A stretch of DNA of 64,000 nt from an uncultured Verrucomicrobiae bacterium (GTDB taxonomy: Bacteria; Verrucomicrobiota; Verrucomicrobiia; Chthoniobacterales; UBA10450), in contig CAWFGO010000003.1 of NCBI GenBank assembly GCA_963815455.1, positions 576,001 to 640,000 on the forward strand, read 5' to 3'. The position numbers were made by a program, and so were the translations under genes. The notes below the pieces were generated by a model. The model was not told the origin of the DNA, ran no database searches, and saw nothing but the letters and a program-made list of their open reading frames with translations. The first letter of the stretch is position 1; each line of letters begins with the position of its first letter. Positions 5,803-59,610 of the stretch are shown here, piece by piece.

Positions 5803-5892
5803 GCCTAACCATTCGATACAGCCAACCGCTGGCCGCTGTACTGAGAAGGTTGAGGGTTGAGAGATGATAGTTGAGAGTAAAGCAAAGCTCGC
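5803..5892 (+). other. Truncated attC (left arm only)
   Basis: GCCTAACCATTCGATACAGCCAAC resembles the left arm at 4291; no GTTRRRY at the expected distance. Confidence 0.7.
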
Positions 5893-12398: not shown

Positions 12399-12405
12399 TC
12401 CGGTT

Positions 12406-12435
12406 AGTTGATAGTTGAGAGTTTATGGTTGAGAG
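12406..12435. repeat. Heptamer (GTTGAGA-like) array upstream of lpxK
   Basis: AGTTGATAGTTGAGAGTTTATGGTTGAGAG. Confidence 0.7.
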
Positions 12436-41658: not shown

Positions 41659-42072
41659 ATGAAGAAAATCATTTCCACCAGCGAAGCTCCGGCTGCCATC
41701 GGTCCCTATTCCCAGGCCGTGCGGGTCGGTTCGACGATCTTTTGCGCCGGTCAGATCCCACTCGATCCAAAGACCGGCCAGATTGTCGATGGCGGGATCA
41801 CCGAGCAAACCCAGCGCGTCATGAAAAATATCAGCGCAGTTTTGAAAGCCGATGGCCTGACTTTCGAAAACGTGGTTAAAACGACGATTTTTCTGATCGA
41901 TTTTGCAGATTTCCAGACGGTGAATGAAATCTATGGCTCCAACTTCAAGAGCGATCCTCCGGCCCGCTCGACGGTTCAGGTGGCCGCGTTGCCAAAGGGC
42001 GCTCGTGTTGAAATCGAAGTCATCGCTGTGGCCGGCAATGGCGAGAAAACCGCCAGCGACACATCCGGCTAG
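41659..42072 (+). CDS. ridA: RidA/YjgF family deaminase
   Basis: APAAIGPYSQA, PPARSTVQV and VEIE. Confidence 0.93.
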   Translation: MKKIISTSEAPAAIGPYSQAVRVGSTIFCAGQIPLDPKTGQIVDGGITEQTQRVMKNISAVLKADGLTFENVVKTTIFLIDFADFQTVNEIYGSNFKSDPPARSTVQVAALPKGARVEIEVIAVAGNGEKTASDTSG

Positions 42073-42102
42073 GATCGACATGGTGGACACGCGATTTCTG
42101 CT

Positions 42103-42253
42103 TCTGGGGAGCGCACGCGCCTCGCGTGCTGGCGAAGGCGCCCTCGCCTTCGCGAACTTTTTCTCATCCAGCGCGTTGGAAGTAATAATTGCATCTGAAT
42201 CGTTTCGGCGAACGCGCCGAAACCCGCACGCGAGGACGCGTGCGCTCCCCAGA
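42103..42253. repeat. REP-like inverted doublet
   Basis: TCTGGGGAGCGCACGCG...CGCGTGCGCTCCCCAGA. Confidence 0.88.
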
Positions 42254-42255
42254 TC

Positions 42256-42822
42256 ATGAGCGAAGATTTGCTCGCGCTTTTTCGCAAGACCGGCGCGTTG
42301 CTCGACGGGCATTTCGTTTTGCGCTCCGGATTACATAGTAGGCAATATTTTCAGTGCGCAATCCTGCTGCAGCACACCGAGATCGCCGCGCGCGTTTGCA
42401 CCGAGCTCGCCAATCGATTGCGCGCATTCGATTGTGACACAGTGATCTCCCCTGCTCTGGGCGGAATCATTGTCGGGCAGGAAGTCGGCCGTGCCTTGGG
42501 TAAACGCCATATTTTCGTCGAGAAAGAAGCCGGCGGGCTCGTATTGCGTCGCGGGTTTAAGATCGACAAGGGCGAAAAATTCATTGTTGCCGAAGACGTG
42601 GTCACGCGAGGCGGACGCGTCCAGCAGACGACCGACATCGTCCGCGCGCACGGCGGCATCGTTTCGGCAGTCGCCGTGATCGTCGACCGAAGCGGGGCGC
42701 ACAAGCCAGGTTTCGGCTGCCCATTCGTCAGTTTGATCGAGATTGAAATGGAAACATTTGAGCCGGACAAATTACCCGCGGATCTGGCCCGCATTCCTGC
42801 GATCAAACCGGGTAGCAAATAA
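42256..42822 (+). CDS. pyrE: Orotate phosphoribosyltransferase
   Basis: GHFVLRSGLHS and the PRPP motif VAEDVVTRGG. Confidence 0.93.
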   Translation: MSEDLLALFRKTGALLDGHFVLRSGLHSRQYFQCAILLQHTEIAARVCTELANRLRAFDCDTVISPALGGIIVGQEVGRALGKRHIFVEKEAGGLVLRRGFKIDKGEKFIVAEDVVTRGGRVQQTTDIVRAHGGIVSAVAVIVDRSGAHKPGFGCPFVSLIEIEMETFEPDKLPADLARIPAIKPGSK

Positions 42823-42880
42823 CTCCCACGTCCTCGAGGCTTACTGCACTGAACTTCGGGCTCCGAAAAACGGTTGAGAA

Positions 42881-43060
42881 TCAGGCCTGTTCCAGCTTCG
42901 CGAGCAAACGTTCGCTGTAACCATCCTTGCGAAGCTTGTCGTAATCGATGCGACCTTCTTTCTTTAGCATCTCCTCTTTGAGGGCGCGCAAAAGATTTTT
43001 GGAGGCGTGATCCAATAACTCGGGCTCGGATTTTGCGCGTCGCTTCGCTGCCGCTTTCAT
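42881..43060 (-). CDS. 59-aa small hypothetical protein (absent from the ORF track)
   Basis: MKAAAKRRAKSEPELLDHASKNLLRALKEEMLKKEGRIDYDKLRKDGYSERLLAKLEQA. Confidence 0.6.
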   Translation of the reverse strand: MKAAAKRRAKSEPELLDHASKNLLRALKEEMLKKEGRIDYDKLRKDGYSERLLAKLEQA

Positions 43061-43167
43061 GAGCCCAAACTTGGCCTAATTGGACTGGATATTCAATGCC
43101 GATGTCTTGACGGTAGAGGCGGCACTTATAATCTCAAGCAACCACGAAATTACGCAGCGCTCAATTT

Positions 43168-43863
43168 GTGAACAGTATCTCAGCTTTTTACCATTCCTCG
43201 ATCGGGAAAAAGATGATCGTTGCGATCACCGGGATCATTTTGATTCTGTTCGTGATCGGCCATCTGCTGGGCAACCTGCAAATCTTTCTCGGACCTGATT
43301 GGATCAACGGCTACTCGCAACACCTGCGCGATCTGGGTCCCTTGCTCTGGGCGGTTCGCGCGTTTCTTTTGGCCACCGTCCTGATCCATATCTACGTGAC
43401 GATCCGGCTGGCGATCGACAATCGCCGGGCCCGTCCGGAGTCGTACAAGGACAAGCACCACGTGAAAGCCACCTTCGCGTCGCGGCATATGGTGATGAGC
43501 GGACTGATCGTGCTCGCTTTCATCATTTATCACCTGGCCCACTTCACCGTCCGCGTAACCGATTCGCGGTTTGCTTTGCTCAAGGCCGACCCACTCGGTC
43601 ATTACGACGTTTATTCAATGATGGTTTACGGCTTCCAAAATTATTACGTCTCGGCGTTCTATGTTCTGGGACTCTTCTTGCTCGCCCTGCATCTGAGCCA
43701 CGGTTCGTCCAGCTTTTTTCAATCGCTCGGGCTTAACGACCAAAAACTCGCGCCGCGTTTTGCTTTGATCGGTCGCATCTTTGCCTGGCTGCTTTTTATC
43801 GGCTACACCTCGATCCCGGTCGCGATCCTGCTCGGATTCATCAAGCCGGCGCAACAGTTATAG
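43168..43863 (+). CDS. sdhC: Succinate dehydrogenase/fumarate reductase cytochrome b subunit
   Basis: SSIGKK..AITG, HLLGNL, 5 TM segments with His ligands. Confidence 0.93.
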   Translation: MNSISAFYHSSIGKKMIVAITGIILILFVIGHLLGNLQIFLGPDWINGYSQHLRDLGPLLWAVRAFLLATVLIHIYVTIRLAIDNRRARPESYKDKHHVKATFASRHMVMSGLIVLAFIIYHLAHFTVRVTDSRFALLKADPLGHYDVYSMMVYGFQNYYVSAFYVLGLFLLALHLSHGSSSFFQSLGLNDQKLAPRFALIGRIFAWLLFIGYTSIPVAILLGFIKPAQQL

Positions 43864-43870
43864 GCAGGAC

Positions 43871-44364
43871 AATTCGAAATCCGAATATCGAATCTCTAAA
43901 CAAATTTAAATACCAAATCCAAAAACAATGGAAAACAATGTCGAATAGCGACAATTCAAAGCCCTACGACCTCGAGGAGCGCACTTTCCAATTTGCAAGG
44001 ACCAGTCGGGCGTTTGTGAAACAATTGCCGCGAACAATCTCAAATATTGAAGACGTTAAGCAGTTCATTCGCGCGTCCGGCTCTGTCGGCGCGAACTACA
44101 TCGAGGCGAACGAAGCTATTGGGAAAAAAGATTTCGTGATGAAATCAAGATCTGCCGGCGAGAAGCGAAAGAAAGCCGCTATTGGCTTGGCTTGATCGAG
44201 ATAAATGAAAAACTCGGAACGGAACATGTGCGGCTCATGAACGAAGCCAATGAGCTAATGAAAATCTTTGGCGCAATCGTACGTAAATCGGAATAATGAG
44301 ATTTCCTTCTCCTTTTGAATTTTCTGACGTTTGTTTCGGATTTCGGGATTCGGATTTCGTATTT
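43871..44364 (+). other. Inverted-repeat-enclosed four-helix-bundle unit 1
   Basis: Left arm AATTCGAAATCCGAATATCGAATCTCTAAACAAA pairs with right arm TTTGTTTCGGATTTCGGGATTCGGATTTCGTATTT. Confidence 0.8.
43938..44296 (+). CDS. Four-helix-bundle protein (TIGR02436 / 23S rRNA IVP-like), one frameshift near 44142
   Basis: YDLEERTFQF, Q.IRASGSVGANYIEA, then ICRREAKESRYWL in the next frame. Confidence 0.88.
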
Positions 44365-44375
44365 TCTTACTCCGT

Positions 44376-46306
44376 ATGATTGGAACCCTGGACGCCAAAA
44401 TTCCTTCCGGGCCGCTCGACCGGAAATGGCAGAGTCATCGGGATCATTCCCGGCTCATTAGTCCAAATAATCGGCGCAAATTTGAGATCATCATCGTGGG
44501 ATCGGGGCTGGCCGGCGGCTCGGCGGCGGCAACTCTGGGCGAGCTCGGTTATCGGGTAAAATGTTTTTGTTACCAGGACTCGCCGCGTCGGGCCCATTCG
44601 ATCGCGGCGCAAGGCGGGATCAATGCCGCGAAAAATTATCAGAACGATGGCGACAGCGTTTACCGATTGTTTTACGACACGATCAAGGGCGGCGATTTCC
44701 GTTCCCGGGAAGCGAATGTTTACCGGCTGGCGGAAGTCAGTGCGAACATCATCGACCAATGCGTGGCGCAAGGCGTGCCTTTCGCGCGTGAATACAGCGG
44801 CTATTTGGCAAACCGATCGTTCGGCGGCGCCCAGGTTTCGCGAACATTTTACGCGCGCGGCCAAACCGGCCAACAACTCTTGCTTGGCTGTTATCAGGCG
44901 CTGTGCCGCCAGATCGCTGCCGGCACAGTGCAAATGTTTCCGCAAACTGAGATGCTCGACGTGGTCGTTGTCGATGGTCACGCCAAAGGAATCATCACCC
45001 GCGATCTGCGCACTGGTAAGATCGACATGTGCGCCGCTGACGCTGTCGTGCTGGCCACCGGCGGTTACGGAAATGTTTTCTTTCTTTCAACCAACGCCCG
45101 CGGGTGCAACGTCACCGCCACCTATCGCGCCTACAAAAAAGGCGCGCTGTTTGCCAACCCCTGCTTCACCCAGATCCATCCGACCTGCATCCCTCAAGCC
45201 GGCGATTATCAATCGAAGCTCACCTTGATGTCCGAATCGCTCCGCAACGACGGGCGGGTCTGGGTACCGAAACGAAAGGAAGATTGCGCGAAATCGCCAA
45301 ATCAAATTCCCGAGGCGGACCGCGATTATTATCTGGAACGGAAATATCCGAGCTACGGGAATCTCTCGCCCCGCGATATTTCATCGCGCGCGGCCAAGGA
45401 AGTTTGCGATGAAGGCCGCGGCGTCGGGCCCGGCGGTCGCGGCGTTTATCTGGATTTTGCCGATGCCATCAAAAGGCTTGGCGAAGAAACCATCAGAGAG
45501 CGCTACGGAAATCTGTTCGAGATTTACGAAAAGATCACCGGCGAGAATGCCTACAAAGTGCCGATGCGAATTTATCCCGCGGTGCATTACACCATGGGCG
45601 GGCTCTGGGTGGATTACAATTTGATGAGCAATTTGCCCGGGCTGTTCGTGATCGGCGAAGCGAACTTTTCCGATCACGGCGCGAACCGGCTCGGGGCCAG
45701 TGCGTTGATGCAAGGCTTGGCCGACGGCTATTTCGTTCTGCCATACACCTTGCCGAATTACCTGGCCGGCCAGGTGGGCAAGCGACCTTCCCGGAAAATC
45801 CCGAATTCAAAAAGGCGGAGGCCGATGTTCTCGCGAAGATCGACAATCTTCTCAAAATAAATGGCAAGCGATCGCTCGATTCGTTTCACCGCGAGCTGGG
45901 CATCCTGCTGTGGGATAAATGCGGGATGGCGCGAAATGCAAAAGGATTACGGGAAGCGCTAAAAACAATTCCCGAATTGCGGGAAGCGTTTTGGCGCGAC
46001 GTGCGCGTGCCCGGCCAGAACGAAGATTTCAATCAATCGCTGGAGCGCGCCGGACGCGTCGCCGATTTTCTCGAGTTCGCCGAGCTGATGTGCACCGACG
46101 CGCTGGCCCGGGACGAATCATGCGGCGCGCATTTTCGCGAAGAACATCAAACGCCCGAGGGCGAAGCGCTGCGCGACGACGAAAATTTCGCCGACGTGTT
46201 CGCCTGGGAATTTCAAGGGGCCAACGGCGCAATCGTGCCGCCAAAACTGCATCGCGAGCCGTTGCATTTTGAAACGGTGCATTTAACGCAGAGGAGCTAT
46301 AAGTGA
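44376..46306 (+). CDS. sdhA: Succinate dehydrogenase/fumarate reductase flavoprotein, frameshift near 45790
   Basis: [37 protein letters not shown] and ESCGAHFR. Confidence 0.95.
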
Positions 46307-46760
46307 AGTTGAGAGTCCTTAGTTGAGAGTTGAGAGACAAAACAAACCCAGGAGCGAATATGTTTAACTTCGAAAAACTCGATGTTTGGCAAAAAGCGAT
46401 CGAATTCGCTGACCTTGTTTACAATCATACTAAGACGTTCCCGCCAGAGGAGCGATTTGGCTTAACCAATCAGCTTCGACGGGCTGCGATCTCCATCTCA
46501 TCAAATATCGCGGAAGGTTCATCACGAAGTTCTAAAGCGGATTTCTCACGCTTCATTGAAATCGCGACAGGCTCCGTATTCGAAGTCACGTCGCAAGCCT
46601 TCATAGCACAACGGCAGGAGTTTCTAAACGACACTAGCTTTCAACAGATTTACAACGGTGCGGAAGAACTCAGTCGAATGCGGAGCGGCCTACGCAAATC
46701 GCTCTTGACCGGTTAACTCGCGATGTGGCGCTTCCGACTCTCAACTCTCAACTCTCAACT
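46307..46760 (+). other. Inverted-repeat-enclosed four-helix-bundle unit 2
   Basis: AGTTGAG heptamers start right after the sdhA stop; CTCAACT heptamers end right before the sdhB ATG. Confidence 0.85.
46360..46716 (+). CDS. Four-helix-bundle protein (23S rRNA IVP-like)
   Basis: FEKLDVWQKA, FPPEERFGLTNQLRRAAISISSNIAEG and IATGSVFE. Confidence 0.93.
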   Translation: MFNFEKLDVWQKAIEFADLVYNHTKTFPPEERFGLTNQLRRAAISISSNIAEGSSRSSKADFSRFIEIATGSVFEVTSQAFIAQRQEFLNDTSFQQIYNGAEELSRMRSGLRKSLLTG

Positions 46761-47516
46761 ATGAACTTTCGGCTGAAGATTTGGCGGCAGAAAAGTCGGC
46801 AGACGAAAGGCAAGCTCGTCGCCTACGACGCTCCCGACATTTCACCAAACGCTTCGGTTCTCGAAATGCTCGATATCGTTAACGAGCGGCTATTGCTCCG
46901 AGGCGAGGAGCCGATTGCGTTCGATTCGGATTGCCGCGAGGGAATTTGCGGCACGTGCAGTCTTTCCATCAACGGCGAGGCCCACGGCCCGGATCATCCC
47001 GGCGCGGCTTGCGAGCTTTACATGAGGCAATTTCGCGACGGCGCAAAGATCATCATTGAGCCGTTTCGAGTAAAGTCTTTCCCGGTTGTGAAGGATTTGG
47101 TTGTCGATCGAAGTGCGCTCGATCGGATTGTGCAGGCCGGCGGTTTCATTTCCGCGCGGGCCGGTTCCGCGCCGGAAGCGAATTCAATTCTCGTTCCCAA
47201 GCACGACTCCGATCTGGCCATGGAAGCAGCAGCCTGCATCGGTTGCGGCGCGTGCGCGGCGGCCTGCCCGAACGCTTCGGCCATGCTTTTCACCGCAGCG
47301 AAAGTTTCCCATCTTGCCCTTCTGCCGCAGGGAGGGCCGGAACGGGAAAGCCGGGCTGCGAAAATGGTGCGGGCGATGGACGCCGAAGGTTTCGGCAATT
47401 GCACGAATACCTATGAATGCGAAGCCGTTTGCCCGGCCGAGATCAGCGTCAGTTTCATCGCCAGGCTCAATCGGGAATACGCGCGGTCAAATTTTCGCAG
47501 AAGCGTGGGCGAGTAG
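46761..47516 (+). CDS. sdhB: Succinate dehydrogenase/fumarate reductase Fe-S subunit
   Basis: CREGICGTC, CIGCGACAAACP and CEAVCP. Confidence 0.95.
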   Translation: MNFRLKIWRQKSRQTKGKLVAYDAPDISPNASVLEMLDIVNERLLLRGEEPIAFDSDCREGICGTCSLSINGEAHGPDHPGAACELYMRQFRDGAKIIIEPFRVKSFPVVKDLVVDRSALDRIVQAGGFISARAGSAPEANSILVPKHDSDLAMEAAACIGCGACAAACPNASAMLFTAAKVSHLALLPQGGPERESRAAKMVRAMDAEGFGNCTNTYECEAVCPAEISVSFIARLNREYARSNFRRSVGE

Positions 47517-47517
47517 G

Positions 47518-47671
47518 CTGGGGAGCGCAGGCTGCTAGCCTGCAGTTGCCGGCAGCTTGCCGGCAACATTTGGAGACAGAGATAGCAAAAACACGCAGGG
47601 CGAGATCCGTACCCAGTGATGCATCTCGGCAAGCTGCCGAGATGGACAGGCTGGCAGCCTGTGCTCCCCAG
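47518..47671. repeat. REP-like inverted doublet
   Basis: CTGGGGAGCGCAGGCTG...CAGCCTGTGCTCCCCAG. Confidence 0.88.
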
Positions 47672-47673
47672 AA

Positions 47674-48508
47674 TCAGATCGTTTCACACCCGCAGGTCCA
47701 CAATTCCGGGTCGAGCTCGGCCTTTGCGCGCCTGGCTACACCATCGACATCTGCTTTTGACCGCATCACGGCAAACATGGTCGATCCCGAGCCGGACATC
47801 AATGCCGCGCCAACTTCCGGTTGCTTGAGCAACCACATCTTCATTTGGGCGAGAAAAACAAATTTCTCGAAGACTGGACGTTCCAGATCGTTCACGAAAA
47901 TGTGATTCGAGAATTCTTGCGGTCCGTAATTCATTTCCGGAATCTCCTGCGAATTCTGCCAGCGTTCATAGGCCCATGCGGTCGGGACGCCAAATTCGGG
48001 CTTCAACAACAGGATCGACAATCGCTCGGGCAGTTTTATCGGCGTGACCAGTTCTCCGCGTCCTTTGCAGATCGCCGCCGATTGAAAAATGAAAAATGAA
48101 ACGTCTGAGCCGATCGATTCGGCCATTTTAGCAAGCGCTTCGCGCGGCAGTTTCGTTTCGAACAATTCGTCGAGCGCGATTAACGTCGAAGCTGCATCAC
48201 TGCTTCCCCCGCCCAGACCCGCGCCATGCGGAATTTTCTTTTTGAGTTTGATTGAAATGCCGCCTTTACGCTTTCGTTGATTCAAAGAAAGTCTTTGCCG
48301 CGCGCACCACCAAATTGTCGTCGCCATGTCGGGACACCGAGGATCATCGCATTGGAAATCGATCCATCCTCGATCTGTTTCTCGATCTCGATCTCATCGG
48401 AGAGCGAAATCGGCGTGATAAGTGTTTCAATCTCATGAAAGCCATCGCTGCGACTGCCCAGGACGCTCAGGGAAAGATTGATTTTCGCGGGAGCGAAGAC
48501 GCTTGCAT
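47674..48508 (-). CDS. ispE: CDP-ME kinase, N-terminal part frameshifted
   Basis: FAPAKINLSL, IPHGAGLGGGSSDAA and MSGSGS. Confidence 0.9.
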
Positions 48509-48511
48509 ATT

Positions 48512-48592
48512 GTCATGTCGAGCGAAGTCGAGAAATCCCGTGTTGCCAGTTAAAGTGACGCAGCGGGATTTCTCGACTTTGCTCGGAATGAC
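48512..48592. repeat. GTCAT...ATGAC palindromic element between divergent ispE and pyrF
   Basis: GTCATGTCGAGCGAAGTCGAGAAATCCC...GGGATTTCTCGACTTTGCTCGGAATGAC. Confidence 0.88.
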
Positions 48593-49276
48593 AACTGACA
48601 AAATCATCGTCGCGCTGGACGTCGCGACAAAAAAGGAAGCGCTCGGCCTGGTAGAGCAATTGGGCGCCAAATTTCCTTTTTCAAGATCGGTCTCCAACTT
48701 TACACAGCGGAAGGTCCCGGGAATCGTGCACGCGCCGTTCGAGATGCAGGCGCGAGAGTTTTCCTCGATCTTAAGCTGCACGACATCCCAAATACAGTTG
48801 CGGGCGCCGATCGAATCTGCGGCACCCTGGATGTGCAGATGCTGACCATTCATTTGATCGGTGGAAGCGAAATGATTCGGGCCGCAGCGGGTGCACGATC
48901 AAGGCGACTGTCTTTGCTTGGCGTCACCGTTTTAACGAGCATGGATGGCGACGACACTCGCGAAGCTGGCGTTCCCGACAAGATCGACAATCAGGTATTG
49001 CGTTTGGCAAAACTCGGGATGGAAAACGGAATCGACGGTATTGTGACAAGCCCGACACGAAATCAAGATGCTCCGCGCAGAATTTGGCGGACAAGATCAA
49101 GATTGTAGTGCCCGGGAATTCGGCCGAGCTGGTCGAAACCAGGCGATCAAAAGCGCGCCATGACTCCGCGCGAAGCACTCGAGGCCGGAGCGGATTATCT
49201 TGTGATCGGCCGGCCAATCACGGCGCATGCGAATCCGCCCGAAGCAGTGGCGAAGATCATCAAAGAGATGGAGTAA
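48588..49276 (+). CDS. pyrF: OMP decarboxylase, multiple frameshifts
   Basis: [27 protein letters not shown] and VIGRPIT across frames. Confidence 0.9.
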
Positions 49277-49299
49277 GAGATTTCTTCGCTTCGCTCGGA

Positions 49300-50018
49300 A
49301 TGACGAACGCTTTTCGCGACGCTTGCGGTTTATCACGACTACGGATTGCGCTCGGCGGCGATGAACATGGCCATCGACGAGGCATTGCTCGAAACTGCGC
49401 AAATTCCCTCGATTCGATTTTATCGCTGGGATCATCCTGCTCTGTCATTTGGATATTTCGGCGAAATTCGCGGAAGTCGCGCCTTACGCTTCTCCAGCGC
49501 GAATCTCGTCCGGCGTTGGACCGGTGGCGGGATTGTTTTTCATGGAGAAGATTTGACTTATTCGATCGTAATTCCAGCCAATGATCCGACGTTTTGCGAG
49601 TCATCGATGTCGATCTACGAAAGTGTTCATCGCGCTTTGTGCAGATGTGCTGAATGATAACGGCGACCGCGCAGGTTGTGGCCGGGGGCGTTCGGAGGGA
49701 CGGCCCGGCGCCAGGACACGAGCCGCTGTCAGCGCCAAGCGGCTATCGGTAATTGTTTTACAAATCCGGTGCGCGCGGACGTGATGTTGAATGGACGCAA
49801 AATCGCCGGGGCGGCGCAACGCCGGACAAAACGCGGGTTGCTTCAACAAGGCAGCATCCAGTATCGTCGATCCTGAAACGGGTTGGCTGAGCGATTTGCT
49901 CAAGCGCTTTCGCCCGGATCGCCGCGAGCGAAGGATCGACAATTGCACCGATGTCGAACGCGCACAAGAACTCGCCCGGCATAAATACGGTGCAGAATCG
50001 TGGCTCCGTAGGCGATAA
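49300..50018 (+). CDS. Lipoate-protein ligase A family, frameshifted
   Basis: NMAIDEALL, VRRWTGGG and GRKIAGAAQRR. Confidence 0.85.
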
Positions 50019-50066
50019 CGCCGGTCAATTTTTCTCGAATTTGTTTGCCTGTTGTTTTGACAACAT

Positions 50067-51125
50067 GTGAGCCGCCCCTCTATTCTCGGGTTGTGGAAGT
50101 ATTCGCATTCGTCTGGCGCGGTGGGAGCTGCTTTTTCTTCGGGCCACTGGCTCATGTGGCGGAATTGGTGCGCCCGCATCTCGAAGAGGTGGAAAAGCGA
50201 ATCGCCGAGCAAGCAGCGGACGTTCGATCCGGCGCTGGAGGGATATGTCGTTTATGCTGTCGGTAGCCGCGGGAAAAGGCTCCGGCCACTGCTCGCTTTG
50301 CTGGCGGGCGGCGCGAGCGGGGCGGTCAAATCGGGACATGTCGATCTTGCCGTGATCGTCGAGCTCATTCACATCGCCACGCTGGTGCATGACGATATCA
50401 TGGACGAAGCGGAACGCCGGCGCGCCCAGCCGACAGTCAACGCGCGCTGGGGAAATTCGCTCAGCGTTTTGCTGGGCGATTGCCTTTTCGCTCACGCCCT
50501 GACTTTATCGACGAATTTCGAAAACGCAGATATCAGCCGAGCGATCGCGCGCACCGCGGCGACAGTTTGCTCGGGCGAGATGATCCAAACCCAGCGCCGG
50601 TTCGATCTGAAGCTCGGGCGTGGAGGAATATTTCCGGATTGTCGCAAATGAAAACCGGCTCGCTCTTTGCCGCCGCAGCGGAATTGGCGGCGGTCATCAG
50701 CGAGGCCGATTCGACTGTGATCGAAACACTTCAGAAATTTCGGGAACGCGGATCGGGACCGCCTACCAAATTTACGATGATTGCCTCGATCTCGCCGGAA
50801 CAGAGAGCGCCACCGGCAAGACCCTCGGAACTGATCTGCGCAAAGGCAAGTTCACGCTGCCGGTCCTGATTTTCCTGCGCTCGGCATCGGAGTTTGAGCG
50901 GGAACGTTGTTGCCAGCTCGTGCTCGAAGAAAAAATCGAGGAGATGACCGAGCTATTGAAAAATGGCGCGACTAACGGCGCGCTCAACGAGTCAATCGAC
51001 GCCGGAAGCGATTTGATTCGGAGGCGCAAGGCGCGCTGGATCGAATCGCCGCAAATCCCTATGCAGACGCGCTTTTTGCCCTCGGTGACGCCTTGCGCGA
51101 AATGTTCGATCAACTTCGCGTCTAG
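50067..51125 (+). CDS. Polyprenyl diphosphate synthase, frameshifted
   Basis: GKRLRP, LVHDDIMD, KTGSLF and YQIYDDCLD. Confidence 0.9.
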
Positions 51126-51826
51126 ATGTCGCAGCTCAAGATCCGCGAGATGCCGCAGGGAGAGCGGCCGCGCGAAAAACTTGCGTCTCGCGGCGCATCG
51201 GCGTTAACGGATTCGGAGCTGATTGCGATTTTGTTACGCACCGGAATTCCCGGCGCCAACGCGATCGAAGATCGCGCGCAGATTGTTGGAACAATACGGC
51301 ACATGGAATCGGCTGAGCCGGTGCAGCGTTCACGACTTGGCAGCTATTCCCGGGATCGGTTTCGCAAAAGCGACTCAACTCGTTGCCGCGTTTGAAATCG
51401 GTCAGCGCCTGGCTCGCGAGAAGTTATCGAAGCAGAAAATCGATTCTCCGGAATTGGTTAACGACTTGCTCGGGCCCGAAATGCGCCGGCTAAGCAAGGA
51501 ATCGTTGCGCGTGATTCTGCTCGATACGCGTTATCATTTGATTCGAACCGAGGAAGTTTCCGTCGGCAGTGTGAACGAAAGCATCGCCCATCCACGCGAC
51601 GTTTTTCGGCCCGCGGTCGTTTCCTCGGCCTACGCCGTGATAGTCGTGCACAACCATCCATCGGGGGATGCTTCGCCCAGCCAAACCGATCACAGCCTGA
51701 CCCGTCGCCTGGCCGAAGCTGCCGAACTTATTGCAAATCAAGCTGCTCGATCACGTCATCATCGGCGCACCCGGCAGAAGGCAGTCCCGGTTATTTCAGT
51801 TTCAAGGAAGCAGGCGTTTCTAGTAA
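51126..51826 (+). CDS. radC: RadC/JAB domain protein, frameshifted
   Basis: ERPREKL, ELIAILLRTG and HNHPSGD. Confidence 0.9.
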
Positions 51827-51863
51827 ATTCGAAATCCGAATATCGAAATTCGAAAACAGATGA

Positions 51864-52664
51864 GTGACCACAAAAATTCATCCCACGGCGATTATCGATC
51901 CTGGCGCGCAAATCGGAACTGATGTTGAGATCGGTCCGTTTTCGGTGATCGGACCGGAAGTGGTGATCGGAGACAAGACGATTATACAATCGCACGTCGT
52001 GATTGAGAAAGTGTGACAATCGGCTCCGGAAATTTTATCGGGCATGGCGCAATCATCGGCGCGGCGCCGCAGGACCTTTCGTTTTCACCGGAGCGAAGAA
52101 CGAGGGTCGAGATCGGAAACGACAATATCATTCGCGAATACTGCACGATACATCGTGGCAGCGCCGAGAGCAGCGCGACGAAGATCGGCGACAAGAATTT
52201 CCTGATGGCGGGCGCGCATGTCGGTCACAATTGCGAGATCGGAAGCAACGTCATCATCGCGAACAATTGTTTGCTCGGCGGGCACGTGCGCGTGGATGAA
52301 GGAGCGTTCCTCGGCGGTGGCTCGTCATTTCATCAGCTCATGCACGTCGGACGGCTGGTGATCGCGCAGGGCGGATCGGCTTTCAGCAAAGACATTCCCG
52401 CCGTTTGTGATAGCGGCAGAACGCAATGATGTTTTCGGAATAAATGTGATTGGTCTGCGTCGCGCCGGTTTTAGCGCCCAGGATCGAGATGAAATCAAAG
52501 CGGCATTCAAATTGATTTACTCGAGCGGACTGAACGTCGCCCAGGCCCTGGAGAAAGCGGGAGCGATGAAACTCGGCGCGGCTGCGCGCGAGTTTTTCGA
52601 ATTCGTTGCGCATGCAAAGAAACGCGGCATTTGCCCGATCAAGCGCGGCCCGGCCGAGGCCTAA
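51864..52664 (+). CDS. lpxA: UDP-GlcNAc O-acyltransferase, frameshifted
   Basis: [25 protein letters not shown] and [12 protein letters not shown]. Confidence 0.9.
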
Positions 52665-52752
52665 AGTAGCCATCATCATCGGCGCTTGAAAGGCGCGGGC
52701 GGCTATGCATTCTTGGTTGAAGCTTGCCCCGGGAGGCGAGCCAGGCCGCCCA

Positions 52753-53691
52753 ATGAACAGCAGCCCCATCATCGTGGATCGGGTAACAACCGATTCGAAA
52801 GTTTTCGCCTACAGCCGCTGGGATGCCATTCCGGTCGCGGCTGGTCTGCTCCATTTCGCCTATTTTTTGGGAATGTTTTATCTTTTTCCGCGAGCGCCGC
52901 TGTGGGTCATGCTCGTTTTGGGCTTTATCTATTCGGTGAGCATTTCCTGGAACATCAATGGGATTTCTCACAACTTCATTCACAATCCCTATTTCCGATC
53001 CCCGTTGTTGAATCGTCTCTTTAGCATTCTCGAATCCGTGACGGTCGGTTTTAGCCAGGTTTTTTATGAGTGCATCCATATGCAACATCACAAAGGCAAT
53101 GCCGACCGGCCTGATGAAAACGGTGAGACCATCGATTGGATCTCGATCTACAAACATGGCGACGATGGAGAAGCCGAGCACCCGTTGAAATACACGTTCC
53201 TCAGTTTCTTCCGGGAAGATCCAAAGACGGTGTTCAAAGAATTGAAGCGCAAAAATCCGTGGGAAGCGTTCTGGGGCGTGCTCGAGCTCACCCTTTTTGT
53301 TGGCACCTTCGTCCTTCTGGGGTTTCTCAACTGGCGCTACATCGCTTTCTTAATTCCCTTCTATTATCTGGGGCACAGCCTTTCTTACCTCAACGGCTAC
53401 TATCGTCATTACGGCGGGAATCCGGATCAACCTCTGGCTTGGGGAGTGAGCAGTTACGACAAACTTTACAATTGGATCTGGTTTTATAACGGCTACCACG
53501 CCGAACATCATTTCCGCCCGAAGGTTCATTGGACCCGGATGGAGGCTTTTCGCGATCAGATCGCCGAGCAACAACGCGCCGCCGGAGTCCGCGTGATCAA
53601 GCCACCGCACGCACTCGGTTTTCTCGATCCCGACCTGCCTCCGCATGCGCGAGCCAGATCGAGCGGCGACGCCGAACCAAGCCTGGGCTAA
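52753..53691 (+). CDS. Membrane fatty-acid desaturase family protein
   Basis: His boxes HNFIH, HMQHH and HAEHH. Confidence 0.88.
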   Translation: MNSSPIIVDRVTTDSKVFAYSRWDAIPVAAGLLHFAYFLGMFYLFPRAPLWVMLVLGFIYSVSISWNINGISHNFIHNPYFRSPLLNRLFSILESVTVGFSQVFYECIHMQHHKGNADRPDENGETIDWISIYKHGDDGEAEHPLKYTFLSFFREDPKTVFKELKRKNPWEAFWGVLELTLFVGTFVLLGFLNWRYIAFLIPFYYLGHSLSYLNGYYRHYGGNPDQPLAWGVSSYDKLYNWIWFYNGYHAEHHFRPKVHWTRMEAFRDQIAEQQRAAGVRVIKPPHALGFLDPDLPPHARARSSGDAEPSLG

Positions 53692-53718
53692 GCTTCGACC
53701 CGCGGCCGGCGACGCGAT

Positions 53719-54390
53719 TCACTCCAATCCAAGAATCGCCAGCATCCGGCCGGTTTTCCCCTTCTCGATGCGGTAGGAATAGTAGCGCTCCAAATCACAG
53801 GCGGTGCAGGCCCCGCTGTCGTGAACTTCCTTCACACCGGCAGATCGACATTGCCGGACAATTTCCGCCGCGAAATCGATCTCGTAATGCGGCGGACGAA
53901 TGCAAGGACTGAGCTGGACGATCATGTCGGCGGGACTCGACCCAAATTTCTCTTTCATTTGCTCGATCGCCTTGGCCGCAATCGCCTGGGCCGTTCCTTT
54001 CTTGCCGGAATGAACGAGGCCGATCGCGGGCGTTTTAGGATCGACAATGTAAACCGCGCAACAATCGGCGACATGAATGCCGAGGAGGATGCCGGGCCGA
54101 TTTGTAATCATTCCGTCGCAGCCGATTCCAAATTCGTGTGGCATATGCAACATGGAATTGGAATCCACGACTGCCAACCGATTCCCGTGAATTTGCTCGA
54201 CTGTGAGCAACGGCCAGTCGGCGAGGCCGAGTTGACGTCGGATGCCTTGATGCGCGGCTTCGAGCCGTCTTAACACTTTCGCTTTTTCGTGCGAAGCATC
54301 AATGCCGGCGATACGTGTAATGAACGCGCTGCGGCAAACGCCGGTCGCTTCCAGCGCGGGAAAATATTCAATCGGTTCTTGCTTTGTCAC
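53719..54390 (-). CDS. pgeF: YfiH/PgeF laccase-domain protein
   Basis: QIHG, ADC, HSGKKG, CTAC and YSYR..TGRM. Confidence 0.85.
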   Translation of the reverse strand: MTKQEPIEYFPALEATGVCRSAFITRIAGIDASHEKAKVLRRLEAAHQGIRRQLGLADWPLLTVEQIHGNRLAVVDSNSMLHMPHEFGIGCDGMITNRPGILLGIHVADCCAVYIVDPKTPAIGLVHSGKKGTAQAIAAKAIEQMKEKFGSSPADMIVQLSPCIRPPHYEIDFAAEIVRQCRSAGVKEVHDSGACTACDLERYYSYRIEKGKTGRMLAILGLE

Positions 54391-54469
54391 CTGGAACTCA
54401 CCGTTGCCGCAAAAAATCTCAAAGGCCGCAAACGCGGCATCTGAAGGCTTCGCGCCCAGAGTTGAACTC

Positions 54470-56278
54470 CTACTTCGGGGCCGGCTCGTTGGACATCGGA
54501 GTCACCGGCGCCGGCTGCAATGGATTCCGTTTTGGTTTCCCAAGCGCATCGACATCGCTGCCCGTGTAGTATCTTCGTGAGTGGGTCGCGCGCGGCGCGG
54601 TTCCTTCGAACGATTCGGTGAAGCTGCTCTGAGCTCCGGTTACGCGATCAAATTCCGCCAGCGAAGAAAGCCATCCAAAGAGGGCTTGCAGCCGCGTCGA
54701 TTGCGCAGTGGTCAATTGCACCTGCGCATTCAGCACGTCCAATTGCGTACCCGCGCCGGCATCGAGCCGGGCTTTGGCCAGACGAACCGCTTCGTCCGCT
54801 TGCTCGACATTCTTCTCCGTAGCCTGAATCAGTTCGCGGTTCTGTAATAAGTTCGACGCAGCCTGCTGGATTTCGAGCTCGACCTGGCGAACGTCGTCAT
54901 CATAAGTGATCTTTGCCTGCGAAAGAAGAGCGCGCTGCTGCTTGACCAAACCGTAGGTTTCGCCGCTGTCCCAGATGTCCCAGTTACCCTGTGCGCCCGC
55001 GACCCAGCCCTTGGATGCGTTATGCAATGCGGTACTGAACGGCGAACTGAAAACCTCGTAGCCGCCGCTTCCTGTAAAATTTGGAAGAAAGTTACCGATC
55101 GCCACATGGACCTGCTCGAGCTGATTATAAACATTGGCCCGGGCCTGCTTCAGGAACGGGCGGTTTTGTTTGCCCTGCTCGATCGCAGAGAGGAGCTCGA
55201 TCGACCGTGGAATAAAAGTCAGCTCGCCCACGACGCGAAGCGGCGAAGCAATACCGCGGGCGGGGTTAAAATCGAGGCCTAACGTTTTCGCAAGCTGGAG
55301 AATTGAGATGCGATAATCGTTGCGGGCAGCGATCAATTGCGGAATCTGATTGGAAAGCTGGACTTGCGCCTGGAGAACATTGAACCGCGGCACTGTTCCG
55401 GCATCGAAACGATTCTGCTGGTCTTTCAACTGGCTTTCCAATAACCGGACCGATTCCTCCTGAACGCCAATCAGAGCGCGATTCAGAATTACCTGATAAA
55501 ATTGCGTTTTTACCGTCGCGATGACCTGATCGATCGTGCTTCGGAATCCGAAATAAGCGCTGTCGCGCTGGAAAAACGTTCCTCGAATCGACCGAAACGT
55601 TCCGTAGTTGAAAAGCAGCTGCGTGCCGAGGATGCGAATAGCGTAGGCATGATCCGTCTGCATGAGATCCTGAGGTTGAATGTCTGAAGGCGTGTTGGTG
55701 CCGGCCGAGGTACCGGTTCCAGAGTTCGTGCCCGAAAATCCGCCGGCGGAGCCGAGGCGAGGATCGGTCCATTGATACGCCACGTTGGGCATGACATGCG
55801 GCAACGCCTGCGCGCCGATCTGGAGAATGACGCCCCGGGTTCGTTCAATTTCCTCCTTGGCCCGCAAAATATCGGGATTCTGCTGGAGAGCGGCGAGGAT
55901 GGCCTTATCGAGATCGAACACGGGTGCGCCTTTTTCCGACCATTGGAAACTGCTCGATGTCACGACCGCGCTCGACTGCGTCGAGTTCGACATCGCGGCG
56001 CCATTTCCTGTCGGAACGGGACTCAGTCCCGGAATGATTGGAGTGGGCTCGGGCGCTACGGGAGTGGATTCCGGAACGACAGCCGGCGCCGGAGTAGTGG
56101 TGGCGGTCGAATCCGGTTCGGGGAAGACGGTTGCCGTTGGAGTGGCGGTGGGACTGGCTTCGACAAGAATTGCCGGGTCCGTGACGGCCGCGGGAACTGC
56201 CTCTTCCTGTCCCGCGACAGACGAGATGATAAAAGCGGCTCCTAACACGGTGCCGCATACAACAGAAATTTTTCGCAT
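54470..56278 (-). CDS. TolC-family outer membrane protein
   Basis: Signal peptide, Pro/Thr linker, two OEP repeats (RFDAG..FNVLQAQ and RLDAG..LDVLNAQ). Confidence 0.9.
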   Translation of the reverse strand: MRKISVVCGTVLGAAFIISSVAGQEEAVPAAVTDPAILVEASPTATPTATVFPEPDSTATTTPAPAVVPESTPVAPEPTPIIPGLSPVPTGNGAAMSNSTQSSAVVTSSSFQWSEKGAPVFDLDKAILAALQQNPDILRAKEEIERTRGVILQIGAQALPHVMPNVAYQWTDPRLGSAGGFSGTNSGTGTSAGTNTPSDIQPQDLMQTDHAYAIRILGTQLLFNYGTFRSIRGTFFQRDSAYFGFRSTIDQVIATVKTQFYQVILNRALIGVQEESVRLLESQLKDQQNRFDAGTVPRFNVLQAQVQLSNQIPQLIAARNDYRISILQLAKTLGLDFNPARGIASPLRVVGELTFIPRSIELLSAIEQGKQNRPFLKQARANVYNQLEQVHVAIGNFLPNFTGSGGYEVFSSPFSTALHNASKGWVAGAQGNWDIWDSGETYGLVKQQRALLSQAKITYDDDVRQVELEIQQAASNLLQNRELIQATEKNVEQADEAVRLAKARLDAGAGTQLDVLNAQVQLTTAQSTRLQALFGWLSSLAEFDRVTGAQSSFTESFEGTAPRATHSRRYYTGSDVDALGKPKRNPLQPAPVTPMSNEPAPK

Positions 56279-56383
56279 TACAAAGTGACTGAAATTTAGA
56301 CCCAGGAAGCCCTGCCTGTGGATTCAGACCGGCACATCGTCATCCTGAGGTCATAGCACAGACGACGATTTGCTGACAAGGGA

Positions 56384-56834
56384 TCATTTCGATTGGCAAT
56401 AGTTGTAAATTTTATTGTAGATATGCAGCCAGGCCTTTTGCTCAGCCGGTGAAAGGTGTTCGAGGATTTTCATGAGGTTTCCCACCATCTCTTCGCGGAT
56501 GCGCCGGACGAGAGCCGAGCCCTTCGGGGTAATGCAAACCATCACTTTGCGGCGATCCTCCCGCACACTCGAGCGCGCCACGTAATCGAGATTCTCCAGC
56601 CGCGCGACCAGTCCGCTCGCCGCCGCCGTGGTGTGTCCCATTTTCTGCGCGATAGCCGACATGGTGAGCGCCTCTTTCTGATCGAGATAAGTCAGCAGAA
56701 AAAATTGGGGGAAGGACACGTTGCCCGGCGCGAGTTCCTTGCACAGATGCAGCATGAAACAACGCTGCATTTCCAGCACGATATGGGAAAGACGTTCGGC
56801 GTCGGCACGGATTCGATCGGACGGATTTCGTCAC
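56384..56834 (-). CDS. MarR-family regulator (probable GTG at 56834, one N-terminal frameshift)
   Basis: SFPQF.LL, LVARLE, DRRKV.V.ITPKG. Confidence 0.88.
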
Positions 56835-57046
56835 AAACGCTGTGGCGGTCCCGGTATTCAACCCGCTAAAGCTAAGAGTCCACCGTGGACTGTCAAACGT
56901 CCGGACGACAAAGAAATCAGGCTCCGGACTAAAATCTCTCATGAAATAATTCGCTATTGCTTCGCTGCTCGCATTCCCCGCAGCATCGGTTTGAAAACGC
57001 TCTCGTGTCAGTGAGATGCGACACCGAGCTCGAATGGATTCAAGTT

Positions 57047-58252
57047 TCAATCGAAAAGCAGAGCCGTAACCATCGCGCCCCGCTCCATTTTTTCTCCCGG
57101 ACCGAGACGCACAAGCGAGTTCGACTGGCTCAGGCCGAAAAGCGCGTGCGATTCCTGCCGGCCAACGGGTGAAAATTCTCCATCTTGCAGCCTGCCGCGG
57201 ATGTAATGGGCCCGGTCGCCGTCATTATTAAGATCGACAGTTATCCGGGCCGGGACCATCAATGGATCGAGATTTGTCGCGCCCATCATTTTCAAAATCG
57301 CCGGGCGCACGAACACCAGAAAGGTCACAAAAGCGGAGACGGGATTTCCGGGCAAGCCGAACACCGCGCACTCGCCGATGCGACCGAATAGAAACGGTTT
57401 GCCCGGTTTGATGGCGACACGCCAGATGTCGATTCTGGCGCCGAGTGATTGCAACGCCGTTTTGACGAAATCATGTTGGCCGACGGAAACGCCGCCGGTG
57501 ATAATGAGCAGCGAACTCTTGCTGCCTTCCTTGATTGCAGCGGCCAGCGCGTCGCGGTCGTCACGACAATGCACGGATGAGCTTACACTCGTCCGGCAGC
57601 GTTCGAGTAATCCTTGCAGCAAGATCGAATTGCTCTCGTAAATTTGGCCTGGCTGAAGCGGCTCGCCCAATTTCGCCAGCTCGTCGCCGGTTGAAATAAT
57701 TGCAGCACTCGCTTCACCACCAACAACCACGTCGGCGATTCCCTGCGAAGCGAGCAAGGCAACGGTGGTTGCGCGAATCGGCTCGCCTTTGCTCAGAATT
57801 TTTTGGCCTTCGCTTAGATCACAGCCTCTTTTCCGAATGAACTCGCCAGGATCGACATCGGCATTCACGAGAATCTCATCGCCCTGACGATCGACATCCT
57901 CCTGCATGACCACCGCATCAGCGCCTTCGGGGATCAACGCACCGGTGAAAACTCGGATGGCCTGACCTTTCCGGAGACGCAGTTGTCGATCCAATCCGGC
58001 GGGCTGTTCCCCGACCACTCGCAACCGCGCGCCGGATCGGCCCGCCTTCGCTGCGCTACGGCGCGGCAGGCAATCGCTCGCGATCACCGCGTAACCGTCC
58101 ATGGCCGAGTTGTCGAAAACCGGGAGCGCCAACCGAGCGAGATAATCCTGGGCTGAAAAACAATCGAGCGCGTCCGCCAGCGGGACCTTGCGCGCCGGCA
58201 ATGGTCATAGCTTACTTAGAATGGTTTGTCGGGCTTCGTCCTCTGAAATCAT
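57047..58252 (-). CDS. moeA: Molybdopterin molybdotransferase, in-frame TGA at codon 16
   Basis: FDNSAMDGYA, STGDEL, TGGVSVG, KPGKP and GLPGNP. Confidence 0.92.
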
Positions 58253-58256
58253 TTGC

Positions 58257-58317
58257 TGTAGGGGACGCTGTTAGCGTCCCGGCTTTTTGGAAAGGGAAGC
58301 TAGCAGCTTCCCCTACA
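58257..58317. repeat. GTAG-type REP doublet
   Basis: TGTAGGGGACGCTGTTAGCGTCCC...GGGAAGCTAGCAGCTTCCCCTACA. Confidence 0.85.
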
Positions 58318-58443
58318 ACTTAATCAATTCGGAACCGGGATTTGGCAACTCCGATAGAATCGCGAGCACGCGACGGATGTCGGTGTCACCATTTCCAATT
58401 GGAAATCCGAAATCCTTCGCCATATTGTCGCCGACCGACCAGA

Positions 58444-58535
58444 GGTGAGGTGGCTGAGTGGTCGAAAGCAGCGCTTTGCTAAAGCGCCGTACCTGTCAAA
58501 GGGTACCGAGGGTTCGAATCCCTCCCTCACCGCCA
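58444..58535 (+). tRNA. tRNA-Ser(GCT)
   Basis: GGTGAGG/CCTCACC acceptor stem, GCGCT-TTGCTAA-AGCGC anticodon arm, long variable arm, GGTTCGAATCC, encoded CCA. Confidence 0.97.
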
Positions 58536-58631
58536 TTCCATTTTCGATTTTAGAATTTCGATTTTCGATTGCTTGCGTACTCCGCGTTTCGTCATTCGGC
58601 ATTCGTCATTCGTCATTCCGCCGCAGGCAGC

Positions 58632-58647
58632 AATCCCTCCCTCACCG
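58632..58647 (+). repeat. Direct repeat of the tRNA 3' end (att-like)
   Basis: AATCCCTCCCTCACCG is identical to 58517-58532. Confidence 0.85.
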
Positions 58648-58762
58648 AGTCCAAGGCCAAAAACGCTCGCCCCGTCGGACAGCCCCGAAAGCCTTCGGCG
58701 GTTGCGTTTTTGCCAGGTGCCGCTGGCAATTGTGCAGCAGGCTGGTGCACAATTGGTAGTCA

Positions 58763-59085
58763 TCAGCTTGGGACGAATGTCACCGTTCCCGCTTTGACCT
58801 GCGGCAGCAAAGCGATCAACGCCGCCATCAACGGGCGAGTGTCAGCCAATCGATTTGAGCGCGCTTGAAGCGCGACGACAGCAATGTTGTATTCCCCAAT
58901 GTTCTGCTGGTGCACCATGTTGCTGTCCATCGTCACCAGGACATCGAATCCAGCTTCGGCTGCCTTGGCGAGCAATTCGCCATTCTGAATTCCGGTCCAT
59001 CCTAACGAAGAGACGGAGTCCGTTTGATGTCCGGTCAAATCGCGACTCAACCGCAGTCGAGATTCTCATCCAAGAGCAGCCGCAT
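58763..59085 (-). CDS. DUF5615 PIN-like toxin, frameshift near 59055
   Basis: MRLLLDENL, then GWTGIQNGELL..A...FDVLVTMD. Confidence 0.85.
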
Positions 59086-59292
59086 TCAGGAGGCAGCCAG
59101 CGCGTGCTCTCGCGCTTCTTCCAGCAACGCAATGACTTGGTCGCGCTTCACACTGGGAAAGCCTTCCAAGAACTCTTCGATCGAATCGCCAGCCTCCAAA
59201 TGATCGAAAAGACTTTTGACCGGTACGCGCGTTCCGACAAAGACCGGCTCGCCGCCCAGGACGTCCGGATTTTGCGATATGACCTTGCTCAT
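59086..59292 (-). CDS. DUF433 antitoxin
   Basis: PDVLGGEPVFVGTRVPV..L..GDSIEEFLEGFP. Confidence 0.92.
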   Translation of the reverse strand: MSKVISQNPDVLGGEPVFVGTRVPVKSLFDHLEAGDSIEEFLEGFPSVKRDQVIALLEEAREHALAAS

Positions 59293-59610
59293 TGGGGTGA
59301 TTCTAACTCCAAACACCCAAATCTTCCAGCGTTAGAAGCTGCCCGGATTACGCTGTTTGCGTTACGCATGTTGCGTCATGCGACCCGGATCATTTCGGCA
59401 TTCGGTTTTTGCGGGAGCGTAAGCCGGCGACTTGTGTAGACTTTGCGGTTCAGCCCGAATCCGCGCGTTCGCCATCGGACAACCCCGAACTCCGAAAGTC
59501 TTCGCGAGCAGGTGCTTTCGGGATTCGCACGTCCATAGCGCCTTAATCGGAGCGTTGTGCGAGCGCTCACTATTTGTTGGCCAGATTCTTAACGATCCCA
59601 TTTCTCAAAT

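Follow-up and report, generated by a model that had tools for sequence, protein, structure and literature searches.

What is a small gene wrapped in its own inverted repeats doing at both junctions of an sdhCAB operon, and how did it come to be there? The question is raised by a 64,000-nucleotide stretch of DNA (hereafter the window) from an uncultured Verrucomicrobiae bacterium (GenBank assembly GCA_963815455.1, the source genome; contig CAWFGO010000003.1, positions 576,001 to 640,000), in which a 450-510-bp cassette is present at each of the two junctions: a TIGR02436/PF05635 gene between inverted arms of four to five short units each. Such cassettes are self-contained, lie where the stop of one gene meets the start of the next, read in the same direction as the host operon, and keep one arm type within a protein clade. 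We give roughly even odds (about 0.5) to the reading that it is a selfish, transposase-less cassette whose Avd-like protein recognizes its own arms and promotes precise transfer with enzymatic help from outside.

At the locus itself (Table 1), a preliminary description made from the sequence had it right that two divergent IVP/Avd-like genes occupy the junctions, each within inverted arms of its own, and that the downstream cassette (unit 2) fills its junction exactly, from 46307, the first base past the sdhA TGA, to 46760, where the repeat run ends on the last base before the sdhB ATG. The open reading frames (ORFs) of both units match TIGR02436 above cut-off, and that of unit 2 also matches PF05635. 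In the upstream cassette (unit 1) the two arms are 37 nt long and 78% complementary; in unit 2 the pair at 46306-46336 and 46738-46768 is 31 nt long and 81% complementary, with pairing that extends past the repeat run to 46768. By sequence comparison the two proteins are from distant clades, unit 1 being represented by L241, an intact relative 88% identical to it, which shares 23% identity with the unit 2 protein (E 1.3). The ORF of unit 1 carries a frameshift, its A run at 44142-44144 having one A fewer than in three close relatives that are in frame. The sdhA gene is likewise frameshifted near 45789, where a C is absent that is present in related contigs of four out of four runs. Both frameshifts are most likely assembly errors. 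Because the contigs of these runs derive from relatives that make up a small share, gene-less joints in them cannot be tied to the sdh locus here.

The armed architecture is real and general for the family. It had been proposed as a check that family genes should generally be flanked by heptamer-type inverted repeats, and they are. In a two-arm test, i.e. a search for matched inverted arms around a family gene, matched arms were found in 90 of the 116 scorable loci of the host's order (a set of about 110 loci from the 150 matches listed and 17 loci of the source genome), in 51 of 75 scorable unit 2 relatives across GTDB phyla (among the best 80 of 593) and in 44 of 68 loci of the unit 1 clade (among the best 80 of 576), versus none of 600 random window pairs of the source genome, which served as the chance control. 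The family is present in 32 of the 38 genomes of the order, counting the source genome and excluding three unpublished ones; the source genome has 22 TIGR02436 matches, with 20 loci scored. Phyla with passing unit-2-like loci, within the same best 80 of 593, include Verrucomicrobiota, Planctomycetota, Bacteroidota, Pseudomonadota, Acidobacteriota and Bacillota, among others. Judged from the nearest records, the window itself belongs to the Verrucomicrobiota and probably to the Chthoniobacterales. On viral contigs, 17 of 26 loci pass; in an annotated phage collection, no match was found. Looked at from the side of the repeats, 14 of the 16 long-range arm pairs of the source genome enclose a TIGR02436-family gene (13 distinct genes). 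The host junctions span unrelated functions, the cassette is co-oriented with host transcription in 76 of 90 loci, and the arm starts no more than 15 nt from the upstream stop in 59 of 90.

The arms have a grammar of their own. Their length is set at ~30-36 nt, mostly four to five units, and the most common unit number is 6, 5 and 4 for periods of 6, 7 and 8, respectively. We considered the idea of one unit per protein subunit (five units at any period); since it is arm length and not unit number that is roughly constant, at 30-36 nt, this idea is unsupported. Position-specific unit variants are mirrored between both arms, and an element's left and right arms have more in common with each other than with the arms of clade-mates. 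Inverted repeat arms of longer period are likewise borne by GxxExxY loci, two of which are in the source genome. As a separate observation, four TIGR02436-family genes with different arm types lie inside 10 kb of the source genome (C5:1700-11800).

Gene and arms travel together, a pairing read from sequence that says nothing on binding itself. In the source genome, where nine genes carry nine different arm units, upstream units agree with the reverse complement of their downstream partners much more often than in permuted data (mean distance 1.25 versus 3.27; 0 of 20,000 permutations). On the protein tree both arm unit and period track clades: one well-supported clade has period 6 in nine of nine rows, several clades have period 8, and most have period 7, each with its own unit. 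Many clades are tied to a single junction (gap-pgk, cysD-cysN, macA-ABC and two sdhA-sdhB types), so that orthology confounds the match of unit and clade; the test was therefore redone on non-homologous junctions only. There, the unit is shared by 55% of 188 junction pairs at 70-80% protein identity and by at most 2% below 50% identity, and the nearest-neighbour unit distance is 1.93 versus 3.35 permuted (minimum 3.01 in 2000 permutations). For example, GTTGA-type arms of the unit 2 clade are found at sdhA-sdhB, pilT, livG-livF, livK-livH, MacB-ABC, cusB-cusA and microcompartment junctions. Orientation also goes by clade, with the G-rich arm upstream in 48 of 51 unit-2-like loci and the C-rich arm upstream in 41 of 44 unit-1-like loci. 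In other words, the cognate protein/repeat pairs that the preliminary description imagined are there as sequence covariation, on the permutations within the genome, the protein tree and the non-homologous junctions alike.

What do the same junctions look like in relatives? Cassettes come and go there, replace one another, and in places have shrunk to a gene-less hairpin or a single arm. Among same-family relatives, sdhC-sdhA is a plain ATGA overlap in 16 of 18; of the remaining two, one has a gene-less unit-1-type hairpin and the other an orphan unit 1 right arm together with another gene-less element. A complete unit 1 cassette is found at this junction in eight metagenome contigs. At sdhA-sdhB, 21 same-family relatives comprise five full cassettes, one partial cassette at a contig end, six clean stop/start overlaps and nine other inserts, mostly hairpins like repetitive extragenic palindromes (REPs) plus one gene-less heptamer hairpin of another type. 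Empty sdh junctions, which were to be looked for in relatives, thus exist at both sites, and the units are not fixed. Judged from its substitutions, the cassette protein at sdhA-sdhB is under purifying selection, with nonsynonymous divergence (pN) of 0.20 versus synonymous divergence (pS) of 0.81 over 36 pairs of nine genes. Amplified cassette ends occur at two of 140 loci and may be an assembly artefact: in genome G012 (L041:5040-6240) two allelic types make up five left ends and three right ones, and in genome G021 (L120) there are four right ends, the amplification being nested or in tandem. The window itself has a REP-like hairpin directly after sdhB (47518-47671; 45-nt arms, 82% complementary) that resembles those at sdhA-sdhB of relatives.

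Alleles of one Nostoc operon allow movement to be viewed more closely. Of eight plasmid copies, four have a 3-nt spacer between gene2 and gene3 and four have a 420-448-nt cassette there, and one of the empty copies holds a different cassette at the next junction. Between loci L383 and L384, the cassette gene is 99.7% identical, the flanking genes are 92.5% and 91.7% identical, and the first differences fall 10 nt to the left and 17 nt to the right of the cassette. The right flank of L383 is 99.7% identical to that of the empty allele L381; L378 has a cassette gene of 78% identity and a right flank identical to that of L385 over 200 nt. Related cassettes (82-84%) are present in Aulosira and Trichormus at unrelated junctions, and the blastn alignment spans exactly the length of the cassette. 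The Nostoc alleles suggest a precise, homing-like transfer that takes along almost no flanking DNA.

The target site has fewer marks. No general target-site duplication was found: direct matches of at least 7 nt at the cassette ends are present at 8 of 181 loci versus 9.3 expected, and those of 2-5 nt are indistinguishable from selection that keeps stop and start. Likeness of the target to the arm unit shows a small excess (5.6 versus 5.3 of 12) that is confounded by repeated sites and arm calling, and a TA beside the right cassette end (65 versus 44 of 181) is a weak hint. None of 328 cassettes offered an informative recent duplicate within a genome to define the ends. A diverged duplication of host-gene ends was rejected as a rule, there being one case, nuoK-nuoL; two of 140 loci scored high, and neither involved a host-gene end. 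In that one case (source genome, C1:134300-134950), a GxxExxY gene with longer-period inverted arms lies between nuoK and nuoL; after it the final 15 codons of nuoK recur in a copy with mostly silent differences, which suggests transfer from another allele. A further arrangement of note is that of a KSB1 metagenome-assembled genome (JAJDAF010000062.1; L201:500-2250), where a CRISPR-like array with a 37-nt repeat ends in two period-8 cassettes, one gene-less and one gene-bearing; the same 24-nt core from that repeat stands on both sides of each, as though insertion had duplicated the core, and more period-7 elements follow next, at degenerate repeats.

The protein offers a shape and few other clues. 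The unit 2 model is a confident, all-helical four-helix bundle (predicted local distance difference test 95.5), with Xcc0516 (Z 19.3), BT_0352 (Z 17.6) and Avd (Z 15.4, 14.7) as the closest folds; the Avd superposition has a root-mean-square deviation of 1.6 over 106-112 aligned residues at 4-5% sequence identity, and unrelated bundles reach Z of at most 13.5. Both sequence relatives in the PDB were deposited as five chains, and by analogy the cassette protein is probably pentameric. The family is basic (median isoelectric point 9.2). Neither unit contains a DDE, HUH or serine/tyrosine recombinase; a TIGR02436 gene is the only ORF in each, so the units are transposase-less, as had been proposed. 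No reverse transcriptase (RT) was found among the flanking genes and no PF00078 match in the source genome, which is 90% complete. Of that genome's 16 PF01797 (Y1/RAYT-like) matches, none lies inside either unit.

How might such a unit work? We hypothesize a selfish, apparently promoterless cassette of ~420-510 bp in which an S23p/IVP Avd-like gene lies between terminal inverted repeats of ~30-36 bp built of four to five tandem 6-8-nt units. The basic, pentameric protein would bind the repeats in its own arms, most probably in their DNA form, and would hold both cassette ends together; it would help the cassette to be copied or inserted precisely into an empty junction, in most cases the same one and occasionally a new one, with the strand-transfer activity supplied by the host or by a factor acting in trans. 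ORF-bearing intervening sequences (IVSs) of 23S rRNA would be the same cassette landed in rRNA and removed there by RNase III, and many orphan heptamer arrays of the source genome may be debris or non-autonomous copies.

The system that comes closest is the ORF-bearing 23S rRNA IVS of Coxiella burnetii and Leptospira, which is alike in size, S23p/IVP protein family, terminal stem of ~28-36 bp, heptamers before the ORF and sense orientation. The Coxiella IVS is described in the available text of PMC4990558 as 428 nt long, with a 28-bp stem and tandem heptamers before the S23p ORF; its origin is given there as unknown, and mobility encoded by the ORF is raised as a hypothesis. A heptamer-armed cassette is also present inside 23S rRNA in Azospirillum lipoferum (locus L380). 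The cassettes here differ in lying at protein-coding operon junctions, the two units being between sdhC and sdhA and between sdhA and sdhB (Rfam finds only a tRNA in 42000-60000), in numbering ~20 copies per genome with dozens of clade-specific arm types of periods 6-8, and in lacking an RNA-wobble signature. They are the operon-junction form of the ORF-bearing IVS, and are not classed as IVSs proper because they are outside rRNA. Diversity-generating retroelements (DGRs) offer the other relative: homology of PF05635 and Avd has been remarked upon (PMC10053308, as far as its text was available), and Avd shares the four-helix-bundle fold, forming a positively charged pentameric barrel similar to S23 proteins in the portion consulted of 10.1101/2023.10.23.563531. 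Unlike a DGR, the cassette has no linked RT, in itself or in the source genome, and 42500-48000 contains no long direct repeat, though no search was aimed at pairs of template and variable repeats. The kinship with the 23S IVS protein and with Avd that the preliminary description pointed to is upheld by the family matches, the folds and the Azospirillum cassette.

REPs with their associated tyrosine transposases (RAYTs), or REPIN systems, and MITEs (miniature transposable elements bearing inverted repeats) combine a gene-bearing master having cognate short repeats with many gene-less, intergenic copies. The cassette shares terminal inverted repeats with insertion sequences and MITEs, and differs in having no HUH or DDE enzyme, arms that are tandem arrays and no general target duplication. 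Homing introns and inteins are patchy and site-associated, with a long-lived gene that is under purifying selection and is gained and lost; the cassette, unlike them, is without endonuclease or splicing, is intergenic and has almost no co-conversion. A search of the literature, with most subscription papers and supplements outside its coverage, found no description of the armed cassette at mRNA junctions.

Repeats of the same kind have been reported without the gene. In the available text of the papers, Xanthomonas and Nostoc heptamers (GGGAATC, GGGGAYT) are intergenic and often in inverted pairs, with 70-75 in Xanthomonas (PMC4692102); Beggiatoaceae have TAACTGA heptamers directly before start codons (MacGregor 2015, PMC4679880); and polymerase slippage has so far been invoked to explain why bacterial genomes have 7-nt repeats in excess (Mrazek 2007, cited in PMC4679880). 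Both sets resemble the arms, by description, as intergenic tandem heptamers; the names of the cassette protein family were not found in the available text of PMC4692102 and PMC4679880. The source genome has 91 tandem arrays of period 7, two of period 8 and four of period 9. Among its 173 strong arrays, 61 lie no more than 700 nt from an inverted partner (null 7), and the spacings of the pairs fall into two groups, 5-224 nt and 357-574 nt, the short ones being gene-less hairpins; 30 gene-less inverted elements are listed, two or three rows of which are not true elements. The orphan arms and turnover noted in the preliminary description are borne out by five sites in the window (starting at 5845, 12405, 51825, 58536 and 58588) and by gene-less elements in relatives.

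Some neighbourhoods of these arrays deserve mention in their own right. At 58444-58650 in the window, two orphan arrays that differ from each other come after tRNA-Ser, and beyond them 16 nt of the tRNA 3' end are repeated. A period-7 array lies within 80 nt of 14 of the 49 tRNA genes of the source genome, and several solo arrays span from a -35-like box starting with TTG to the tRNA. That tRNAs are cargo between paired arms was rejected (1 of 49, the null level). In genome G022 (L360, L361, L366), one heptamer type has grown to arrays of 300-500 nt; two other types tested have not.

Table 1. Host genes, the two cassettes and orphan arms in the window (window positions)
Feature	Position	Strand	Family match
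sdhC, cytochrome b558 subunit (host gene)	43168..43863	+	TIGR02046
Unit 1 left arm: four AAATCCG-type units and inner AAACAAA cap	43868..43904	+	
Unit 1 four-helix-bundle gene	43938..44296	+	TIGR02436
Unit 1 right arm, reverse complement of left arm	44330..44366	+	
sdhA (host gene)	44376..46306	+	
Unit 2 left arm, AGTTGAG units; first base directly 3' of sdhA stop	46307..46336	+	
Unit 2 four-helix-bundle gene, 118 aa	46360..46716	+	TIGR02436, PF05635
Unit 2 right arm, CTCTCAA units; last base directly 5' of sdhB ATG	46737..46760	+	
sdhB (host gene)	46761..47516	+	
Orphan arm, unit 2 type	5845..5878		
Orphan arm, unit 2 type	12405..12430		
Orphan arm, unit 1 type, at stop/start junction	51825..51855	+	
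Pair of orphan period-7 arrays, each of its own type, immediately following tRNA-Ser gene	58536..58618 (starts 58536, 58588)	+	

Are the arms an RNA stem or the ends of a DNA element? The preliminary description took the unit for an mRNA intervening sequence, with arms that pair and loop the gene out so that the upstream stop stays beside the downstream start, or that form an RNase III site separating the cistrons. We now consider this model rather improbable. Part of it stands: both sdh stems form in the minimum free energy structure with flanking stop and start included (z -2.6 and -1.4), arms often begin close to the upstream stop, few downstream genes (8 of 89) have a Shine-Dalgarno-like motif, pairing beyond the arms exceeds the null slightly (z -2.8), and the same cassette in rRNA is cut by RNase III. 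A stem selected in mRNA would, however, predict more G·U than A·C mismatches, and none of this bias is seen: isolated arm mismatches on the transcribed strand of 181 cassettes are G·U in 81 cases and A·C in 103 (p 0.12), compared with 27 and 7 (p 0.0008) in a control set of terminator-like hairpins of the source genome. Counting all arm mismatches gives 213 and 267, and the arm duplexes are no stabler in sense than in antisense (85 versus 95 loci). The survival of only harmless insertions also accounts for the co-orientation and for arms that start near stop codons. Clade-specific tandem units and movement to new junctions are left unexplained by an mRNA stem, and 112 of the 173 strong arrays have no inverted partner. 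As for the proposed rejoining of the flanking cistrons, it is unsupported, because the known IVS of Coxiella is cut out by RNase III and its pieces are left unjoined (PMC4990558, available text). All told, the arms look less like an RNA helix that tolerates wobble pairs than like terminal inverted repeats assembled from repeated binding sites.

Three other explanations have been weighed against a DNA-borne cassette that moves by way of its own protein. In retrohoming, an Avd-like pentamer would bind cassette RNA and recruit an RT in trans, and the cDNA would be patched into an empty junction via short homology, as in DGRs. The fold, closest to Avd after the family's own members, fits, as do co-orientation with transcription, near-zero co-conversion and the lack of a general target duplication; in the DGR complex all five Avd protomers touch an RNA stem-loop (10.1101/2023.10.23.563531, available text). 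Given that the transcribed strand has no G·U bias and that a genome with ~20 cassettes, 90% complete, has no PF00078 match, we hold retrohoming to be unlikely. It is also conceivable that the arms are the ends of a non-autonomous MITE- or REP-like element moved in trans, e.g. by an HUH/RAYT nuclease, with the gene as cargo and the covariation as linkage only. The gene-less inverted elements, the Y1/RAYT-like matches in the source genome, the REP-like hairpins at the same sdhA-sdhB junction of relatives and the arms of GxxExxY genes all lend themselves to this idea, which we nonetheless judge distinctly improbable: nearly all long-range arm pairs enclose one gene family, a single enzyme would need to read dozens of different units, the cassette gene is under strong purifying selection, and triplet arrays are found in 21 of 31 relatives that have the gene and in one of six that lack it (a comparison confounded by family). 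Very unlikely, in our estimation, is a host-beneficial regulatory module that spreads by ordinary homologous recombination and whose protein binds the repeats and tunes tightly coupled operon genes and orphan-repeat loci. Long residence and purifying selection at sdhA-sdhB would suit such a module, as would solo arrays before start codons and tRNA genes (MacGregor 2015, PMC4679880, available text); patchy presence with clean empty sites, unrelated host functions, swaps with REP hairpins at the same junction and transfer without flanks would not.

The mobile, protein-driven cassette has its own difficulties, and we set them side by side here. The two-arm test is failed by 26 of 116, 24 of 75 and 24 of 68 loci. 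The Nostoc flanks are mosaic, so short-tract host recombination could mimic homing, and they represent one locus family. At sdhA-sdhB, the divergence of the cassette gene tracks that of sdhB (rho 0.75, over pairs that are not independent), which fits long vertical residence with repeated loss, and the sdhB tree, in which 16 of 28 inner branches lack resolution, does not allow gains and losses to be counted. Covariation of protein and arms is also expected from simple physical linkage. The protein has no recognizable catalytic centre, only Q38 being invariant in 24 sequences, and no partner enzyme has been identified for it. Avd, its closest characterized relative, binds RNA (10.1101/2023.10.23.563531, available text), and the Coxiella IVS protein is described as probably not expressed and decaying (PMC4990558, available text).

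What would the cassette mean for the family? PF05635/TIGR02436 proteins are very widespread and have solved structures and no known role, and the cassette joins three open items in one testable system: the function of this family, the origin and spread of ORF-bearing rRNA IVSs, and the bacterial excess of 7-nt repeats. If cognate recognition is true, the family supplies many orthogonal protein/repeat pairs; if the protein drives transfer, the result is a 0.45-kb mobile element without a known recombinase. A broader proposal, which we offer tentatively and regard as possible though doubtful, is that PF05635 proteins confer mobility on a class of minimal homing elements free of transposases, in which each Avd-like pentamer would read its own arms of 6-8-nt repeats and drive precise insertion at stop/start junctions, and that 23S IVSs, much of the heptamer excess and possibly the Avd of DGRs derive from such an element.

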